Below are positions 2,958 to 11,482 of a stretch of 28,929 bases of DNA, in pieces (position 1 is the first letter of the stretch; every line of letters starts with the position of its first letter). Source of the stretch: Candidatus Iainarchaeum sp. (GTDB lineage: Archaea > Iainarchaeota > Iainarchaeia > Iainarchaeales > DTGL01); contig JAGHBI010000092.1 in the NCBI GenBank assembly GCA_021161055.1, positions 1-28,929 on the forward strand, written 5' to 3'. The notes beneath the pieces were generated by a model. That model saw only the letters and a program-made list of their open reading frames with translations, was not told the origin of the DNA and ran no database searches. The translations under genes and the position numbers were made by a program.

Positions 2958-2964
2958 TTAAGTG

Positions 2965-3546
2965 ATGGCTTTGCCATATATAAAGGAAAACATCCGCGCG
3001 ATCGGTATTGACGATGGCTACTTCAAACCCAGAACAAAAGGCAGTACAAAGATTGTTGCGGTTCTGCTGCGCGCTGATTGTCGCTTGGAAGGTATTTTAT
3101 GCGAAGAGATAACCATTGATGGTCTTGACTCAACAGCTCGCATAACCAAGATGCTGAAGCAGAATGAGGAAAAATTCCTGAAGCAGGCCAGCGTGCTCTT
3201 CCTTGATGGTGTGAACTTTGCAGGTTTCAACATAGTTGACGTAGATGCTTTGCATTCTGCATTAAAGCTTCCGATAATTATAGTGTTCAGGAGGATGCCA
3301 AAAATGCGGGAAATATTCGCTGCTCTGGAACGTTTTGAGGACCGCAACCTAAGAATGCGGCTGATTAAAAAAGCAGGCGAGATCCATAAAGCAGATAAAA
3401 TATTCTTTCAATGCAGGGGCGTAGAGGCAAGCACCGCAAAGCAACTCATAAAAAAATTTTCAATACACTCGCACTTGCCAGAGCCTGTGAGGATTGCACA
3501 CCTGATTGCCAGCGCAGTAACACTTGGCAGGAGCACAACCCCCTAA
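2965..3546 (+). CDS. DUF99/UPF0215 family protein (endonuclease V-like fold)
   Basis: IGIDDG, IDGLDST, FLDGVNFAGFNIVD and PEPVRIAHLIAS motifs. Confidence 0.88.
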   Translation: MALPYIKENIRAIGIDDGYFKPRTKGSTKIVAVLLRADCRLEGILCEEITIDGLDSTARITKMLKQNEEKFLKQASVLFLDGVNFAGFNIVDVDALHSALKLPIIIVFRRMPKMREIFAALERFEDRNLRMRLIKKAGEIHKADKIFFQCRGVEASTAKQLIKKFSIHSHLPEPVRIAHLIASAVTLGRSTTP

Positions 3547-3908: not shown

Positions 3909-4757
3909 GTGGGCAAGAGGGAAAGACTCAGGCCGGGAAAGCCGCTGAAGAAATCAAAGCAAAGCGTGCTTTCAGTTATTGGGAAGAACCTTCACATGCT
4001 GGACCCTTTCACCTACGCTGACATTTTGCTTGAACGTATAGGCCAGAGGGAAAACAAGCTTGTTGCATGGCCTGTTTATTTACTCACCGCTTTTCTGAGC
4101 GCATGGCTTATTTACACTGTTCTCGGGATTATTCTGGGCACAAGAGCGCCGGCAGTTGTTGTGGTAAGTGGTTCTATGGAGCCAACCTTTTACAGAGGGG
4201 ATATAATGGTGCTCACAGGCGCAACACCAGAGAATCTAAAAGCACAGACAGTTGAGCTTCCGTGCGCTCTGACCAGTAAGAATATTTATGAGTATGCAGA
4301 AACGTACTGTGCGGTAGAAGATATTAATGAGCTTGTTGAATGTAAACAGATAATTCCCTATGCAAAGAAAGGTTTAATACCGAGCTCAAAATTTGTAACA
4401 AAGCGCATATGCTTTCCAAGCATAGATAAATGTATTGAACTTAATAAGAAGGGAGATGTTGTTGTTTACACCTCAGACAGCCCAAGGTATTATGGAAAGC
4501 AGATAATCCATAGAGCTGTCGTTAAGATACGCGCTAATGATGGCACATTTGTTCTTACAAAAGGCGATTCGATTTACAACCCGCTCATCGATCAGGAGGC
4601 AGGCTTAGCGAGCAGCGCAGTTCCCATAAACAAACTTGAAGGGAAAGTATTTTTCATGATTCCAAAGCTTGGCTATATAAAGCTCATTATACTGGATGAT
4701 ATCCCATGCATACTTTTGCACCCCCTTGATTTCATGGAGAAGTGCGAACTTCCATAG
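3909..4757 (+). CDS. Signal peptidase I, archaeal/ER type (S26B, Sec11-like)
   Basis: TM helix followed by VVVSGSMEPTFYRGD (catalytic Ser), IIHR (catalytic His) and TKGD..N. GTG start after GGTG. Confidence 0.9.
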   Translation: MGKRERLRPGKPLKKSKQSVLSVIGKNLHMLDPFTYADILLERIGQRENKLVAWPVYLLTAFLSAWLIYTVLGIILGTRAPAVVVVSGSMEPTFYRGDIMVLTGATPENLKAQTVELPCALTSKNIYEYAETYCAVEDINELVECKQIIPYAKKGLIPSSKFVTKRICFPSIDKCIELNKKGDVVVYTSDSPRYYGKQIIHRAVVKIRANDGTFVLTKGDSIYNPLIDQEAGLASSAVPINKLEGKVFFMIPKLGYIKLIILDDIPCILLHPLDFMEKCELP

Positions 4758-4854: not shown

Positions 4855-5205
4855 ATGGAAGAACCGGTAGATGTTGAAATCCAGCCTAAACGGGTTCCCG
4901 CAAGAGAATGCTTCATAAATGAAATAAAAGGGAATGAAACGCGCGTTGCAATTGTTGTGAGCGTTGTTTCTCTGAATAGGGCAGCAAAAAACGCTGTTGT
5001 TTCAGATGGTAGTGGTGAAGCGGTGCTCACATTTGATAATACTGCAAAGATGCGTGGCATCGCTGAAGGCATGGTTTTGAGGGTTATTGGAAAACCGCTA
5101 GCAACAAAGCCCTTAACGCTCGAAGTTGAACTAACACAAGAATTAAAAGATTTTGATGCTAACTTATTCAAGAAGGTAAAAAATCTGTGGGCGAAGCTCC
5201 GATAG
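4855..5205 (+). CDS. Replication protein A small subunit (RPA14/Rpa3-like OB fold)
   Basis: KRVPARECFINEIKGNETRVAIV..V, SDGSG, VLRVIGK and EVELTQEL.DFD..L resemble Thermococcales RPA14 (RRKPAVERKISEIREEDTRV...DDGTG...VRVIG, recalled from memory). True start is ATG 4855; the ORF-track extension overlaps the signal peptidase. Confidence 0.72.
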   Translation: MEEPVDVEIQPKRVPARECFINEIKGNETRVAIVVSVVSLNRAAKNAVVSDGSGEAVLTFDNTAKMRGIAEGMVLRVIGKPLATKPLTLEVELTQELKDFDANLFKKVKNLWAKLR

Positions 5206-5213
5206 GTGGTACT

Positions 5214-5960
5214 ATGAAACTCGTGATTGGGAACGCGAGTAGCTTTAAAAAAAGCGTAGATGCAATTGCCGCTCTTATAGACGAAGCCGAGTTTATTGTA
5301 AATGAGAATGGTCTGACCCTGAAAGCTACAGACCCGAGTCAGATAGCGATGGTGGATTTTGAGCTGCCAAAGAGTGCTTTCAAAGAGTTTGATGTCAAGG
5401 GGGAACTCACAATCGGCATCGATATGGATTATCTGAGGCAGGTTATTTCAAGAGCAAAAAGCGATGACACGCTTATTCTCGAACTAAACCCCGGAGCCAC
5501 AACCCTCAATATAACATTCAAAGGAAAATCACAGCGTAGCTTTTCAATACCTCTAATCGATGTGTCCAAAGGGCAGATTCCAAACCCGAAGATAGAGTTT
5601 GAAGCGGACGTTAAAATGAAAGCGTGGCTCCTGCAGGATGCGTTGAAGGATGCCGAACTCATTTCCGGGCATGTTGTTTTTGGCGTCACTTCTGATTGCT
5701 TTTATGTGAGCGCAAGTAGCAGCAAGGGCACACTTAGAAACGAAACAAAGAAAGATGAAGATGCGATAATAAAGTTTGATGTGAAGAAAGAATGCAAAGC
5801 GATGTTCCCATTGGATTACCTAAAGGATATGCTCAAAACGCCGAGTAGTGATGATGAGCTAACAGTGCATTTGCGCACAGATGCGCCAGTGCGCATAGAT
5901 TTCAATATCGATAAGGCGCGCGTTACATACTACTTAGCTCCAAGAATCGAAGCAGAGTGA
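5214..5960 (+). CDS. pcn: DNA polymerase sliding clamp PCNA (canonical-looking copy, PCNA-1)
   Basis: GL.LKATDPSQIAMVDFEL, IPLID interdomain loop, LQDALKDA, F.LDYL and C-terminal YYLAPRIE. SD AGGTGG before ATG 5214. Confidence 0.96.
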   Translation: MKLVIGNASSFKKSVDAIAALIDEAEFIVNENGLTLKATDPSQIAMVDFELPKSAFKEFDVKGELTIGIDMDYLRQVISRAKSDDTLILELNPGATTLNITFKGKSQRSFSIPLIDVSKGQIPNPKIEFEADVKMKAWLLQDALKDAELISGHVVFGVTSDCFYVSASSSKGTLRNETKKDEDAIIKFDVKKECKAMFPLDYLKDMLKTPSSDDELTVHLRTDAPVRIDFNIDKARVTYYLAPRIEAE

Positions 5961-5963
5961 TTG

Positions 5964-6836
5964 CTACAGTAACAGCATTACTCCGAAAGATGCCAGGAGT
6001 GCACCCACAACCTTTATTGTAATGCTTTTTCTATCAATAGCCTCCCTGAATAGAGAAGGTGCAAACTTGCTCACCATAAGCGCTAACGCCAATACAATGA
6101 AAGGTTGTAATGCGCCAATAGCGCTTACCAATGATACATACCTAATTGAGAGGGCCATGAGCTCCAGTATATAAGCCACAAAATAGCTGCCTGCGCTCAA
6201 AAACCCAAACGCTAACAATCTTGGCTTTGCAACAATAGCCCCTCTCAGCTCTTTAAAATAAAGAGGCAGCGCAATCGCATACACGCTTAAAGTAATGAAT
6301 GAGCTCCAGAGAAACAAGCTCCAATAATCTATGCTGCCTAAAAGATACTTTGTTATGATTGCTTCCATAGCCCACAAAAGAGAACACAGAAAAGCGGTCA
6401 GCGCCCACTTATTTTTGCCGAGCTTTCCATCGGATACAAGTATTGAAGCAACCACTATACTTATGATTCCAAATATCTGTGCATAGCTAAGCGCTTCACC
6501 CAAAAATATTACTGCGAGCACAAGCACGAATAGTGGCAAGCTCTGCAAAGCCACCACTAAGCGAGACGGCTCCGCTTTCTGCATCGCTTTGAAGTATAAC
6601 AGCACACCTGCAATGCCAAAAAGTGTTGCTGTGAGCAGCATAAGGAATTCATCTATTTTTAGAATTTCTGGAGGGCTAAGCAAGAACGCGATAGCGATAA
6701 CCGGTATCATTGTGATGTCGCATACTATAGTTCCAAGAAGCGGATTCTTGAGGTACCCATTCACAAGTACTTTATCGCTTATATTCACAACCGAGTAAAG
6801 TACTGTTGAAGCTAATGCCAGAAGGAACCAGAGCAT
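5964..6836 (-). CDS. EamA/DMT family transporter
   Basis: About 10 TM helices in two repeats; LYFKAMQKAEPS.......Q..PLFVLVLAVIFLGEALS...IFGI. Start moved to ATG 6836 to avoid overlapping the next gene. Confidence 0.9.
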   Translation of the reverse strand: MLWFLLALASTVLYSVVNISDKVLVNGYLKNPLLGTIVCDITMIPVIAIAFLLSPPEILKIDEFLMLLTATLFGIAGVLLYFKAMQKAEPSRLVVALQSLPLFVLVLAVIFLGEALSYAQIFGIISIVVASILVSDGKLGKNKWALTAFLCSLLWAMEAIITKYLLGSIDYWSLFLWSSFITLSVYAIALPLYFKELRGAIVAKPRLLAFGFLSAGSYFVAYILELMALSIRYVSLVSAIGALQPFIVLALALMVSKFAPSLFREAIDRKSITIKVVGALLASFGVMLLL

Positions 6837-6908
6837 AATCACAAACCTATAGGCAAACAATTTAAACCCTTCCCTATTTATTTTAATTAATCTCTTCGCG
6901 GTGCCTGT

Positions 6909-7631
6909 ATGATTCGCATAACCAGAGTTCAGCCATTCCAAAGCGCCATAAGAGCAATAGCTAATTTTATCTCTGAGGGAAACTTCAGATTCAACGAAAA
7001 AGGTCTTTCCTTCAAAGCAGTTGATCCGAGCCAGATAGTGCTTGTAAGCTACGAGGCTGGCAGAGATTTCTTTGAGCGATTTGATGTGGAGCCGAGCCTT
7101 GTAGGCGTTGATATAGATGAGTTGAATAAGGTTGTGAGGCGTGCATCAGCAAGCGATGCTATTGAACTGGAGCTTGAGGACTCCTACCTTAAAGTGGCAA
7201 TAATCGGCAGCCTTGAAAGAATCTTCAGATTGCCTCTCATTGATGTGCTTGAAGAAGAGCCCGAAGTGCCTGAGCAGAGCTATGATGTAACGATTGAGAT
7301 TGGGGCAAGGCTCTTACAGGAGGCATTGAAAGATGCTTCGCTCTTTGAGAGCAGTGTTGTTTTTAGGGTTGAAAACTCAAAGCTTTTCATAGAAGCGAGG
7401 GGCTCGCAAGGGATGCTTCGCACGGAAGCGAAGCAGCAGGATCTTGTGAAGGTAAGGGCAAAGGCCGATGTTGTTGGCAAGTACTCGCTCAACTTCCTTG
7501 AGAACATCGTTAAGGAGGCCGAACCATCCGAGAGTATCATTCTTGAGCTGAAGAGCGAGGCTCCAATGAGAATAACATACAATATAGGCTCAGCGAAGCT
7601 TCAATTTCACCTGGCGCATATGATTCTATAG
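6909..7631 (+). CDS. pcn: Second, divergent PCNA paralogue (PCNA-2)
   Basis: KGLSFKAVDPSQIVLV, LPLID, LLQEALKDA, KYSLNFL and APMRITY align over the full length with PCNA-1 (about one third identical by manual alignment). C-terminus is LAHMIL. Confidence 0.93.
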   Translation: MIRITRVQPFQSAIRAIANFISEGNFRFNEKGLSFKAVDPSQIVLVSYEAGRDFFERFDVEPSLVGVDIDELNKVVRRASASDAIELELEDSYLKVAIIGSLERIFRLPLIDVLEEEPEVPEQSYDVTIEIGARLLQEALKDASLFESSVVFRVENSKLFIEARGSQGMLRTEAKQQDLVKVRAKADVVGKYSLNFLENIVKEAEPSESIILELKSEAPMRITYNIGSAKLQFHLAHMIL

Positions 7632-7682: not shown

Positions 7683-8678
7683 ATGATTGAATTCTCGCTC
7701 GAGGATTTGCAGTTTGCTGCCCGTTATCCTTTTTCCAATACGGCAAAGCGCATAGTGCAGCGATCAAATTTGGCTATTGATGATATCGATATCACAATTA
7801 AGGATATTGCAAAAGGTGCTTTGAAGGCTGCGCTCGCTAACGAAGCCTATCCTGTGTGCGAACACAGGGATAAGGAGACTTTAGCGAGGTATATACTCGC
7901 ATATCCCGTTGCAAGAGTGCTTGTTTCCTTTCTCGAGAACCCCAAATATTATTTCTACTTTGCCCGCGCAATTTACAGGGCAGCACTGGCTTCTCTTCAA
8001 AGGGCACATAATGGGGTTGAGGAAGCGAAAAAGCTGGCGAACGATTTCGGCATAAGTTTTGGTTTCAATGGGTACTTTGAACTCGACCTTATGGAATTCC
8101 TCAGGACTCCAAGCAAGGATGAACTTCTGAAGCTTGTGAACCAGAAGGTTCATTCCGGCACCGTTTTTCTCAGCCCGAACCGATTTTCCCGCTTCCTGGC
8201 AGAAAGGGCACAGCAAAGCGTACTTTCCACACTGCCTGTTAGTACGCAGGGCTTGCCTTCAGAGCTCAGGGAGCTAGCTTTTGAAACACTTGAGGAATCG
8301 CTTGAGAAGACCAAGGCAGAGATAAGCACAACAGCAAACCTAAGTGCACTGCCACCATGCATAGAAAAGATATATTCTGAGCTGCTTGCCGGCAATAATA
8401 TTCCGCACATGGCAAGGTTTGCCCTGGCAACATTTCTCAATGCGATAAACGTTCCTGAGGAGAAGATTATAGAAGCATTTTCCCATGCACCAAACTACAA
8501 CGAAAAGATAACCCGTTACCAAGTGTCAAGAATAGTGCATGGTAGAGCAGGCAAGCGCTACAGGCCATTATCCTGCGCAAAGATGCGCAGCTATGCATTA
8601 TGCAATGCGAACTGCAATGTAAAAAACCCGATGCAGTATTATAGAAAACAGCTTGCAACAAGCTCCAGAGGTGGATGA
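7683..8678 (+). CDS. priL: DNA primase large subunit PriL
   Basis: YPF, LVNQ.V..G.V.L, PPC, H.ARF.LATFL, APNYNEKITRYQV and Y.P.SC.KM....LC...C (four cysteines for a 4Fe-4S cluster). Confidence 0.95.
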   Translation: MIEFSLEDLQFAARYPFSNTAKRIVQRSNLAIDDIDITIKDIAKGALKAALANEAYPVCEHRDKETLARYILAYPVARVLVSFLENPKYYFYFARAIYRAALASLQRAHNGVEEAKKLANDFGISFGFNGYFELDLMEFLRTPSKDELLKLVNQKVHSGTVFLSPNRFSRFLAERAQQSVLSTLPVSTQGLPSELRELAFETLEESLEKTKAEISTTANLSALPPCIEKIYSELLAGNNIPHMARFALATFLNAINVPEEKIIEAFSHAPNYNEKITRYQVSRIVHGRAGKRYRPLSCAKMRSYALCNANCNVKNPMQYYRKQLATSSRGG

Positions 8679-9941
8679 ATGCAGGGGGATTTTCAAAAAG
8701 AAGAGGCCTTTCTGAGAGAAAAGTTTAGGGAATATTATTCAAAGCACAAGGTAACAAGCGTGCCTGAAATAGATAAGCGGGAGTTTGGAATAGGCAATTT
8801 TGGCAAGAAGATTGTTAGAAGGCACATGAGCTTTGGTGATTATGCCGAACTGAACACCTTTCTGAGAAGCGAAGCACCGCTTTTTATCTCATACTCTGCA
8901 GCTTACTATAGGGATGCTTCTGCTCGGCCCATGGAAAGGAAGGGCTTGCTCGGCGCTGACTTAGTTTATGAATTCGATGCTGGTGATATCCCCACAAAAT
9001 GCAAAGAGAAGCATGATTTCTGGATTTGCCCAAAATGCAATAGCACGGGCAAAGGCTCAGTGCCAAAATGTCCCAAATGTTTTGCCACAACCAAACAGTA
9101 TGAGTTTCCCTGCAAGCGTTGCATTGAAGAAACAAAGAAACAGGTGATAAAGTTGCTTAATATTCTGGAAAGCGAACTTGGATTAACGCAAGGCATAAGC
9201 ATAAATTTCTCGGGGAATGCAGGCTATCACGTTCATATAAGAAGCGACACCATAAGGCATTTATCGCAGGATGCAAGGATAGAGCTTGTGGATTACCTTA
9301 CACTTTCCGGTTTCGTGCCTGAACATAATGGCTTTGATCTTTCTACAAAAATGTTAAAGTGCCCTGAGTATGCAGAATTGAAAGGCGCTCAGGCGCGGGT
9401 GATGCAGCACATGATAAAGTTTATAATGAATGCAAACACCGATGAGCTTGCGCAGTATGGCTGCATATCTCTTCCAAGCAGGAGAAAGCGCGAGGGCTTG
9501 AAGCTCGCCTCCTACATCCATGAAAACAAAGAAAGTGTTGTGGCTCGCATAAAGAAAGGCACACTGTTTTACATCGGTTCACGCACAGTTGCTTCTGCAT
9601 TTTGGAGGGCAATTATTGAGCATGCTGTGCGTTTGGCTTCCATAAAGCTTGACAGGCAGACCTCAATCGATATACACAAGATTGTTCGCGTACCCGATTC
9701 GTTGCATGGCTCATCTGGCTTTATTGCAAAAACCGTGCCATTGGATGAACTTAAAGAGTTCGATCCATTTGAGCATGCACTCGCGTTCGACAGCGGGCAA
9801 ATAAAGGTTTTTATTAATAAGGCACCAGAATTTAAAATAGCTGACGATACTTTTGGACCGTTTGAAAATGAGCAGGCTGAGCTGCCAACGGCTGCAGCTC
9901 TATACCTTGTAGCAAAAGGTGTCGCAAAGCTTTGTGATTGA
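8679..9941 (+). CDS. priS: DNA primase small (catalytic) subunit PriS, divergent active-site motifs
   Basis: REFG, RH..F, YS.AYY..., GADLVYEFDA, FSGNAGYHVH and IDIHKIVRVPDSLHG motifs; directly follows priL and precedes GINS. Confidence 0.92.
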   Translation: MQGDFQKEEAFLREKFREYYSKHKVTSVPEIDKREFGIGNFGKKIVRRHMSFGDYAELNTFLRSEAPLFISYSAAYYRDASARPMERKGLLGADLVYEFDAGDIPTKCKEKHDFWICPKCNSTGKGSVPKCPKCFATTKQYEFPCKRCIEETKKQVIKLLNILESELGLTQGISINFSGNAGYHVHIRSDTIRHLSQDARIELVDYLTLSGFVPEHNGFDLSTKMLKCPEYAELKGAQARVMQHMIKFIMNANTDELAQYGCISLPSRRKREGLKLASYIHENKESVVARIKKGTLFYIGSRTVASAFWRAIIEHAVRLASIKLDRQTSIDIHKIVRVPDSLHGSSGFIAKTVPLDELKEFDPFEHALAFDSGQIKVFINKAPEFKIADDTFGPFENEQAELPTAAALYLVAKGVAKLCD

Positions 9942-9942
9942 T

Positions 9943-10494
9943 ATGAATTTTGAGGAGCTGCGCAAGCTTCACAGAATGGAGAAAAACTCCTCACAGCTCG
10001 CCAGCATAAACGAGGATTTCTTCATCGAGCTCAAAGCGTTCCTCGCCGAAAAAAAGGAGCAATATCTGGAACACTTAAAAAAAGGTTCACTTGCAAGTGA
10101 GGACTTTTCAAATATAGAACGCATGGCAAGAGAGCTTCTTGAGATAAGGGAAAGGAAGATACTGAAGAAGGCCTTCCACGCTGCGATGACGGCCGAAACA
10201 GCAACGCCTAGCCTTTGCAGTGAAGAAAAAAAGCTTTTCAACAATATCTATAAAGCAGTCAGCGAGTACAAAAAGGTGTTAGACCGTATGTTTGCATTAG
10301 AAACCAAAAAGCCAAAAAAGCCCAGCGAGGAAAAGGATTTAAATACAGTTCGCATGCAGATTATTGAGGACGTACCAGCCTTTGTTGGCGCAGATATGAA
10401 GGAGTACGGCCCTTTCAGAAAGGGCCAGCTCATTGAGCTTCCAGCTGAAACAGCTGAAATCCTGCTCGCTAGAAAGCTTGCTGTTAGGCAATAA
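9943..10494 (+). CDS. GINS complex protein (Gins51/Gins15-type: helical A domain then C-terminal B domain)
   Basis: L..L.R.EK....L..I.EDFF, R.RKI..., EEK.LF and C-terminal VPAFVG.DMKEYGPF.KG....LP...AEIL; conserved position after priS. Confidence 0.9.
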   Translation: MNFEELRKLHRMEKNSSQLASINEDFFIELKAFLAEKKEQYLEHLKKGSLASEDFSNIERMARELLEIRERKILKKAFHAAMTAETATPSLCSEEKKLFNNIYKAVSEYKKVLDRMFALETKKPKKPSEEKDLNTVRMQIIEDVPAFVGADMKEYGPFRKGQLIELPAETAEILLARKLAVRQ

Positions 10495-10510
10495 TTTTGC
10501 AGGTGGTTCT

Positions 10511-10699
10511 ATGGAAGAGAACTTTCAGCCAAAATACAACAAGTTTTGGCGTATAAAATGTAAAGCATGTGGCAATGAGCAGGTAGTTTTCTCCTGCGCA
10601 TCCAGAGACATACTTTGCAATGTGTGCAATGCATTGCTTGCTGAGAGCACAGCACATAGAATAAGGCTAAAGGATGCTAAGAAAATCAGGGAGTATTGA
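10511..10699 (+). CDS. rps27e: 30S ribosomal protein S27e
   Basis: F.RIKCKACGNEQVVFS.AS....CNVC zinc ribbon; conserved position upstream of aIF2-alpha; SD AGGTGG. Confidence 0.9.
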   Translation: MEENFQPKYNKFWRIKCKACGNEQVVFSCASRDILCNVCNALLAESTAHRIRLKDAKKIREY

Positions 10700-10711
10700 T
10701 GGGGTGTTTGC

Positions 10712-11482
10712 TTGCCCGAATGGCCAGAGATAGGCGAGATAGTTGTTGTGAAAGTAACGAAGGTTCTGCCTTATGGCGCTTTTGTGGAGCTGTTAGAATA
10801 CGATAACCTCCAGGGTTTTATTCATATCTCACAAGTTGCTTCGCGCTGGGTTAAAAACATCCGGAACTATGTGAGGCCAAACCAGATAAGAGCGGCGCAG
10901 GTAATTCACATTGATAGAAACAAGCACCAGATAGATCTGTCGCTCACAAAGGTTTCCGAAGCCCAGGAGAGAGCGAAAATAGAGGAATGGGAACTTTCAA
11001 AGAGAAGCCGCAAGCTTCTCGAGGTATTTGCAAAGCAACAAAAGAAGCCATTCAAAACTGTCTGGAAAGAGGTTGCAGAGCCCCTCCTTGAAAGGTACAA
11101 TAATCTGATGGATGCCTTTCAGGAGGCACTTCTCGAAGGCGAGAATGCTCTGCAAGGAATTCCAAAAAGCTATGTAAAACCACTCCTTGCAATGCTTGAG
11201 AAGAGTATAGAGATACCGAAGAAGCGCGTCCGGGGTGTTCTTAAAATAAAGAGCTACGAACCCTATGCTCTGGATACAATAAAAAATGCACTTATTGCAG
11301 GGCTTAAAGAAGCGAAGGATGCAGAGGTTACAATAAATTATGCAGGCGGTGGCAAATACGTTGTAACAAGCACCGCTTACGATTACAAAACCGCTGAGCG
11401 CAACCTGCGAGCGGTAAGCGAAAAGGTAATGGATGAGGTAAAAAAGGCGAAAGGTATGGCAACCTTCGAGAAGGTGGAATAG
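10712..11482 (+). CDS. eif2a: Translation initiation factor 2 subunit alpha (aIF2-alpha)
   Basis: WPE.GE.V...V..V..YGAFV.L.EY....GFIHISQVASRWVKNIR S1 domain, IDLSL, and YAGGGKY...; TTG start. Confidence 0.96.
   Translation: MPEWPEIGEIVVVKVTKVLPYGAFVELLEYDNLQGFIHISQVASRWVKNIRNYVRPNQIRAAQVIHIDRNKHQIDLSLTKVSEAQERAKIEEWELSKRSRKLLEVFAKQQKKPFKTVWKEVAEPLLERYNNLMDAFQEALLEGENALQGIPKSYVKPLLAMLEKSIEIPKKRVRGVLKIKSYEPYALDTIKNALIAGLKEAKDAEVTINYAGGGKYVVTSTAYDYKTAERNLRAVSEKVMDEVKKAKGMATFEKVE

Follow-up and report, generated by a model that had tools for sequence, protein, structure and literature searches.

The window analyzed here, the 28,929-nucleotide stretch of Candidatus Iainarchaeum sp. that makes up the entire contig C74 (JAGHBI010000092.1) of an 826-kb assembly in 111 contigs (85% complete), encodes two PCNA clamp homologs, denoted PCNA-1 and PCNA-2, in a cluster of core replication genes. 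The two are old, native paralogs that have been inherited vertically throughout the phylum Iainarchaeota and kept under equal constraint, and PCNA-2 carries altered residues at the site that binds PCNA-interacting peptide (PIP) boxes. A sequence-only reading of the window had proposed that the pair represents either a native two-subunit clamp or two clamps with different client sets. Our best explanation, that an ancient tandem duplication was followed by the assembly of two homotrimers that would divide the clients between them, has, taken as a whole, about an even chance of being correct.

Two native clamp genes across the Iainarchaeota

PCNA-1 (248 amino acids; positions 5214-5960, forward strand) and PCNA-2 (240 amino acids; positions 6909-7631, forward strand) both comprise a PCNA_N domain followed by a PCNA_C domain, score above both Pfam thresholds, and are the sole PCNA matches in the assembly. 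BLASTP alignment revealed 35% identity across 241 residues (E = 2e-49), which agrees with the approximately 30-35% estimated by the sequence-only reading. The genes are separated by 948 bp (5961-6908) that hold one inverted EamA gene, an arrangement that the same reading had described correctly. When scored with TIGR00590 (NCBIfam PCNA; curated equivalog cut-off of 99.1 bits), PCNA-1 reached 121 bits, above the cut-off, and PCNA-2 reached 88.4 bits, under it.

Screening of relatives with the TIGR00590 profile identified two matches in 39 of 41 genomes, with 29 families covered. A broader sample of the phylum (151 genomes) yielded exactly two PCNA matches in 140 genomes, three in four, one in six, and none in one. 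Named homologs and loci, among them those of Ca. Iainarchaeum andersonii and AR10, assign the genome to the Iainarchaeota (Diapherotrites), in line with the guess of the sequence-only reading. To type the copies, 40 loci from 37 genomes were sampled and homologs were denoted as A type if their best match was PCNA-1 and as B type if it was PCNA-2. Every two-copy genome sampled encoded one A type and one B type, with A always upstream of B on the same strand and separated from it by a gap of 0-7.9 kb with unrelated genes. The order of B followed by the gene for PriL was kept in most sampled relatives. The expectation of an old pair conserved in close relatives was thus borne out across the phylum. 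The gap between A and B, at 0-7.9 kb, is an insertion hot spot that holds different genes in different families (loci L032-L071), and an EamA gene fills it in eight sampled relatives.

Two kinds of departure from the two-copy pattern were observed. The single match in one genome (G035) is a B type that sits at the start of a contig, and its missing A type is therefore an assembly artefact. A second genome (G041, 94% complete) and one family (f37) encode only one A-type gene, with a non-PCNA gene upstream of PriL. Because these two deep lineages carry the A type only, the A type can serve alone. B-type PCNA homologs (49-53% identity) were also found on contigs in records titled Chloroflexota, Chloroflexi, Methanosarcinales, Falkowbacteria, and Thaumarchaeota (L102, L107, L111, L120, and L144), which are probably mislabelled or contaminated bins.

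Phylogenetic reconstruction was conducted with a quick tree of 204 sequences and a careful tree of 102 sequences; the outgroup comprised 121 sequences, among which the named clusters were few (Pyrococcus, Theionarchaea, and Thermococci). In the quick tree, B homologs were monophyletic with a Shimodaira-Hasegawa-like approximate likelihood ratio test (SH-aLRT) value of 97 and A homologs were monophyletic with a value of 95. The careful tree recovered a core B clade with support of 99/91; in it, A is sister to B, a grouping that is weakly supported (66/89). A tree in which A and B were held together was not rejected by the approximately unbiased (AU) test (p-AU 0.993) and was 150 log-likelihood units better than the free search. 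The deep topology of the quick tree, in which B branched outside of A and other archaea (support of 34), was dropped, as the AU test showed that a better tree uniting A and B had been missed. An independent character is provided by residue F151 (Pyrococcus horikoshii numbering, used throughout for residue positions unless noted), which B homologs have in common with the A homologs of the deep lineages and of the A-only genomes, while Val or Ile occupies this position in 102 of 121 outgroup sequences. The sister relationship of A and B, the AU test, and F151 together indicate that the ancient tandem duplication of PCNA happened within the Iainarchaeota lineage.

Among the same 36 genomes, the mean pairwise identity was 51.4% for A homologs and 51.4% for B homologs, and the pairwise identities of the two correlated (r = 0.79). 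Since the means are equal, neither copy is decaying, and stop codons were detected in no clamp copy among the relatives. Since the duplication, purifying selection has acted equally on the two copies. The possibility of a recent or decaying duplicate was ruled out by the equal rates, the lack of stop codons, and the phylum-wide presence of the pair.

A rebuilt partner-binding edge in the second clamp

Residue changes were evaluated by alignment, with clade counts taken from 36-38 A and 36 B sequences. The interdomain connecting loop of PCNA-1 (its residues 112-129; positions 5547-5600, forward strand) has a PxPKIEF core and contains the motif IPLIDVSKGQIPNPKIEF, as quoted by the sequence-only reading. 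This core is nearly invariant among A-type linkers: P124 and P126 were each identified in 37 of 37 sequences, and K127 and I128 were shared by 35 and 33 of the 37, respectively. The C-terminal tail of PCNA-1, LAPRIEAE (positions 5934-5957, forward strand), includes LAPRIE and thus matches the canonical LAP[KR][IV]E edge; P245 and R246 were present in all 37 A-type sequences, and the corresponding proline, arginine, and glutamate of this edge were found in 118, 107, and 98 of the 121 outgroup sequences, respectively.

PCNA-2 ends in LAHMIL instead, followed by a stop codon (positions 7611-7631, forward strand). This tail is a property of the clade rather than of the one sequence, as H245 was identified in 31, M246 in 35, and L248 in 33 of 36 B sequences (consensus LAHM[IL]L), and the chain terminates at position 248 in all 36. 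The substitutions P245 to H, R246 to M, and E248 to L are the sharpest B-specific changes and fall on the C-terminal edge of the PIP groove. The interdomain connecting loop of PCNA-2 (its residues 108-125; positions 7230-7283, forward strand) contains the motif LPLIDVLEEEPEVPEQSY, again as quoted, and is acidic and variable across the clade: the mean net charge of B linkers is -3.8 versus -1.25 for A linkers, and only P126 is conserved. Twenty-six sites are conserved within each clade yet differ between the clades, the three changes in the B tail included. At these sites, the A type has the outgroup state at 13 and the B type at 4. Judged by these residues, PCNA-1 is the canonical copy and PCNA-2 the derived copy.

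Other parts of the clamp have been kept in the B clade. The ring-closing residues R82, R109, E143, and D147 were identified in 35-36 of 36 B sequences; R82, R109, and D147 were found in 35-38 of the 36-38 sequences of both clades, and position 143 is D or E in 31 of 37 A sequences. Lysines of the inner helices in B comprise K78, K146, K198, and K209. K146 and K209 are kept in both clamps, and PCNA-2 also keeps or gains K78, K142, and K198, with the ancestral lysine at positions 78 and 142 in B and glutamine in A. Homologs of the B type also retain the DPSQ center loop and the hydrophobic pocket positions 41, 46, 48, and 226, and they have three short loop deletions in the alignment. Because the ring-closing residues, inner-helix lysines, DPSQ loop, and pocket positions have been kept, PCNA-2 seems to be a functional clamp subunit whose partner site has been retuned without loss of the PIP pocket. 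The earlier suggestion of an altered PIP site therefore stood for the C-terminal edge and the linker and did not extend to the pocket and the DPSQ loop. Under our proposal, PCNA-2 would be a subunit of a DNA-encircling ring with a rebuilt partner-binding edge and would be expected to serve a different or modified set of partners.

Ring composition, clients, and alternative explanations

Two pairs of interface positions bear on whether the paralogs share a ring. Position 75 lies on the N-face helix and position 151 on the C-face helix. At the 75/151 pair, both the B type and the A-only genome G041 have E/F, and A homologs of the main order have Y/I. The two positions were never both aromatic among 44 A-type sequences (Fisher 1e-8, not corrected for phylogeny), and such a coupled change inside one paralog argues for contacts between A subunits. 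Mixed interfaces would be mismatched at this pair, with Tyr facing Phe one way and Glu facing Ile the other way. Positions 84 and 139 are presumably neighbors across the interface, judging from the Pyrococcus furiosus structure, from which the pairing of individual interface residues is likewise assumed; ion pairs are reportedly found at the interface of that clamp. The charges at 84/139 are positive paired with neutral or negative in 30 of 38 A sequences and neutral paired with positive in 31 of 36 B sequences. A positive charge at position 84 was observed in 31 of 38 A sequences and never in B, and Arg or Lys occupies position 139 in 31 of 36 B sequences. A mixed A-to-B interface would thus bring two positive charges together, a combination that only 7 of the 121 outgroup sequences have.

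Co-folding of a single PCNA-1 subunit and two PCNA-2 subunits yielded an ipSAE (interaction prediction score from aligned errors) of 0.67, compared with 0.01 for the best control, and a predicted local distance difference test (pLDDT) value of 88; the mark applied is met by 51 of 78 solved complexes and by 2 of 108 mismatched pairs. Three runs shared 89-96% of contacts, all on the canonical head-to-tail faces, and the interface lists include residues 75 and 150/151. The co-folding model thus accepts a mixed ring on structural grounds, with the qualification that a pass within one family shows likeness and does not say which member binds.

The proteins that might be served by the clamps were evaluated through their termini. 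C-terminal Qxx[L]xx[FY] boxes were identified in the PolD subunit DP2, PolB, RNase HII, and two other proteins (one Hef-like helicase and one small Nudix-like protein). This box appears to be of the kind that fits the canonical PCNA-1 groove, and we propose that PCNA-1 is the general clamp, which should receive the canonical C-terminal PIP boxes of DP2, PolB, and RNase HII. One of the two additional proteins, a Nudix-box-like protein of 145 amino acids (G000:C94:13447-13884, reverse strand), ends in the canonical PIP box QRSLGDFF followed by G; a Nudix hydrolase tethered to a clamp, for which this protein is a candidate, would be unusual. The other (G000:C55:1353-2912, forward strand) comprises 519 amino acids with a helicase-like N-terminus that by eye is Hef-like, and a basic stretch before a PIP-like end, QETLAKYV. 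The gene for PolB is split across two contig ends (C31 and C19). One small subunit of replication factor C (RFC) was found; the large subunit (RFC-L) and a second clamp loader were not, with a single Rep_fac_C match in the 85% complete assembly.

The interface patterns at 75/151 and 84/139 lean toward two homotrimers, and the co-fold allows a mixed ring. The make-up of the ring thus leans toward the second of the two options posed by the sequence-only reading, the native and specialized character of the pair being common to both. We consider the chance that there are two separate homotrimeric clamps to be evenly balanced; such rings would be loaded by the single RFC and would split the clients. 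Several observations weigh against this proposal. The co-fold assembled a ring from two PCNA-2 subunits and one PCNA-1, and the model therefore sees no bar to mixing. The same core ion-pair residues are kept in both paralogs, making cross-assembly chemically plausible. The coupling at 75/151 may reflect no more than one or two events in evolution, its contact is taken from interface lists and the P. furiosus structure rather than from coordinates, and deep lineages with two PCNAs (G048, G075, G141, and G014) keep the B-like F151 in their A homologs and so show no insulation at this pair. The search for clients particular to PCNA-2 yielded none: PriL, PriS, Gins51, and the OB-fold protein encoded upstream of PCNA-1 have no non-canonical clamp motif in common at their termini. 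Finally, Fen1 (XPG_I) had no match in the assembly at its 85% completeness. This gap, as well as the split PolB, is probably due to assembly rather than true absence.

A single ring containing both PCNA-1 and PCNA-2 (2:1 or 1:2, obligate or facultative) is a possible but less probable arrangement. Such a ring would offer two canonical PIP sites and one special site and would be a two-gene analog of the crenarchaeal heterotrimer. It is consistent with the co-fold on canonical faces, with the retention of R82, R109, D/E143, and D147 in both copies, with equal and correlated rates of evolution, and with the single RFC small subunit, and the genes are ancestrally adjacent and have been retained together in almost all genomes. 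However, two gene products in a ring with three positions need at least one homotypic interface, such that pure rings are not prevented, and lineages with the A type only exist. Given the coordinated changes within each paralog at 75/151 and 84/139, neither mixed interface looks as good as the pure ones, and the co-fold result, being a pass within one family, speaks for likeness rather than specificity. Moreover, unrelated genes usually separate A and B, here on the opposite strand, and the two are probably separate transcripts.

Roles for PCNA-2 other than in two homotrimers or a mixed ring are, as a group, unlikely. One such role, which we regard as quite improbable, is that PCNA-2 has ceased to work as a sliding ring and is instead an adaptor or regulator, monomeric or dimeric, that might act on the primase and GINS genes behind it, for instance. 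The conserved position of PCNA-2 directly upstream of PriL, PriS, and Gins51, its score under the TIGR00590 equivalog cut-off, the loops shortened at three positions, and the altered tail and linker are in line with such a role. However, its ring-closing residues are nearly invariant, its DNA-facing basic residues are kept or increased (K78, K142, and K198), the co-fold yields a normal ring interface (pLDDT 88), and the PriL/PriS/Gins neighborhood is the ancestral seat of the ordinary archaeal PCNA and hence not specific to PCNA-2. It is far less probable still that PCNA-2 is an extra copy derived from a virus or mobile element, of the Thermococcus kodakarensis PCNA2 type, or a redundant duplicate undergoing decay. 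Additional copies of PCNA in Euryarchaeota often have such an origin (PMC3914693, PMC3504372), but tblastn searches of phage and plasmid collections returned haloarchaeal virus and plasmid PCNAs as the best matches to PCNA-2 at 21-27% identity, below its 35% identity to PCNA-1. Viral and plasmid PCNAs, which the sequence-only reading had raised as possible relatives, are thus more distant than the neighboring paralog. No integrase or viral genes were found nearby, the gene is present at a fixed position in 140 of 151 genomes, and its rate of evolution equals that of PCNA-1, with no stop codons in any copy. Returning to the two-homotrimer proposal, we hold its fullest version somewhat tentatively, at slightly less than an even chance: that one duplication gave rise to two insulated homotrimers, a general hub for PIP boxes and a clamp with a rebuilt edge and acidic linker that would serve distinct clients, with a single RFC for both.

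Gene neighborhood and known clamp systems

Genes for PriL (DNA_primase_lrg; 7683-8678, forward strand), PriS (DNA_primase_S; 8679-9941, forward strand), and Gins51 (Gins51_C and Sld5; 9919-10494, forward strand) were identified by Pfam and are tightly packed directly 3' of PCNA-2, which confirms that PCNA-2 lies upstream of the primase and GINS genes. Beyond Gins51, the order is ribosomal protein S27e, aIF2-alpha, and a PAC2 protein; S27e and aIF2-alpha (10433-11482, forward strand) were assigned by Pfam (Ribosomal_S27e, EIF_2_alpha, and S1) and by synteny in relatives. We take the stretch from PCNA-2 through aIF2-alpha to be a conserved archaeal replication/translation cluster and the usual seat of the ordinary PCNA gene. 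The Pfam-annotated neighborhood in the window comprises core housekeeping genes and no mobile-element, integrase, or viral genes, as the sequence-only reading had it. The EamA-family transporter gene between the clamp genes was called at 5964-6941 on the reverse strand; its Pfam match (E = 5e-18) begins at residue 37 of the called frame, and its true start is likely the ATG near 6836.

Upstream of the PCNA-2 ATG by approximately 20-33 nucleotides, an A+T-rich, TATA-like box followed by GGTG was read by eye (6876-6890, forward strand), which is probably the own promoter of the PCNA-2 operon. Because this box and the inverted EamA gene precede it, PCNA-2 would appear to head its own transcript. 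PCNA-1 follows an OB-fold gene (RPA3/Ten1-like; 4855-5205, forward strand; 116 amino acids from an internal ATG) that stops 8 nucleotides before its start. The Pfam OB-fold match of the encoded protein is weak (E = 0.0086), and its Atlas features match clusters of the archaeal 'replication protein RepA family', Rep_fac-A_3, and Ten1 at 0.94-0.96. The gene is immediately 5' of PCNA-1 in 16 sampled loci, and the two probably form one transcript, such that PCNA-1 is apparently co-transcribed with an accessory subunit for single-strand binding. The sequence-only reading had also referred to EndoQ; no such gene was seen near the cluster, and the nuclease located there is instead a Pfam Endo_dU homolog (2962-3546, forward strand; E = 4e-56), which 12 sampled relatives, the A-only genome G041 among them, also encode upstream of PCNA-1. 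A membrane protein of 282 amino acids with an SGSMEP motif (3909-4757, forward strand; weak Peptidase_S26 match, E = 0.06) is probably an archaeal signal peptidase. It is encoded upstream of PCNA-1 in most sampled relatives and is an odd constant neighbor for a replication cluster.

Comparison with characterized systems places the Iainarchaeota pair among several precedents. Like the crenarchaeal PCNA1/2/3 heterotrimer of Sulfolobus and the PCNA2-PCNA3 heterotetramer of S. tokodaii, the pair comprises old native paralogs that have been kept lineage-wide and have differentiated partner surfaces (PMC3914693, PMC3504372). It differs in comprising two paralogs rather than three and in having arisen from an independent duplication, as A and B group together and share F151. 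Both copies also appear to keep a self-complementary interface, such that an obligate heteromer, unlike in Crenarchaeota, is not indicated. Among matches in the PDB, the homotrimeric PCNAs of Thermococcales were closest to A and B, and Sulfolobus subunits were weaker. T. kodakarensis provides a two-PCNA archaeon outside of the Crenarchaeota with separate rings, which is the arrangement thought most likely for Iainarchaeota; its PCNA1 and PCNA2 assemble into separate rings, and the main difference between them lies at the subunit interface (PMC3504372, citing Ladner et al. 2011). However, T. kodakarensis PCNA2 is part of an integrated viral-type element, is limited to its own lineage, and can be dispensed with (PMC3914693), whereas the second copy in Iainarchaeota is phylum-wide, resides in the core replication cluster without mobile context, and is unique in the way its C-terminal edge has been rebuilt. 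The eukaryotic PCNA and 9-1-1 clamps offer a further parallel, in that a general clamp exists beside a second clamp of the PCNA fold with a different client set, as is proposed here. In contrast, 9-1-1 is assembled from three different subunits and relies on a dedicated loader, whereas Iainarchaeota have one extra gene and one RFC small subunit was found. The likeness to 9-1-1 is functional only and not by descent.

A survey from 2014 inferred a single PCNA outside of the Crenarchaeota (PMC3914693), and a replisome survey from 2025 describes PCNA as mostly single-copy in archaea (PMC12680538). Multiple native PCNAs have so far been treated as a hallmark of Crenarchaeota (PMC12680538, PMC3914693), and a literature search found no description of two PCNAs in Iainarchaeota or Diapherotrites. 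Replisome phylogenies use PCNA as a single-copy marker, and Iainarchaeota sequences must therefore first be divided into A and B types. A DPANN phylum with genomes of approximately 1 Mb has kept a second clamp throughout its history, and the second clamp must therefore do something that the first cannot. The pair constitutes a small, tractable system of two proteins of 240-250 amino acids, one RFC, and both PolB and PolD. It is also a natural experiment in how a duplicated homomeric ring insulates or merges its paralogs and in how a PIP-binding groove is retuned. If the proposed explanation is true, the Iainarchaeota would represent an archaeal division of labor between clamps whose origin is separate from that of the crenarchaeal heterotrimer and from the eukaryotic split between PCNA and 9-1-1.

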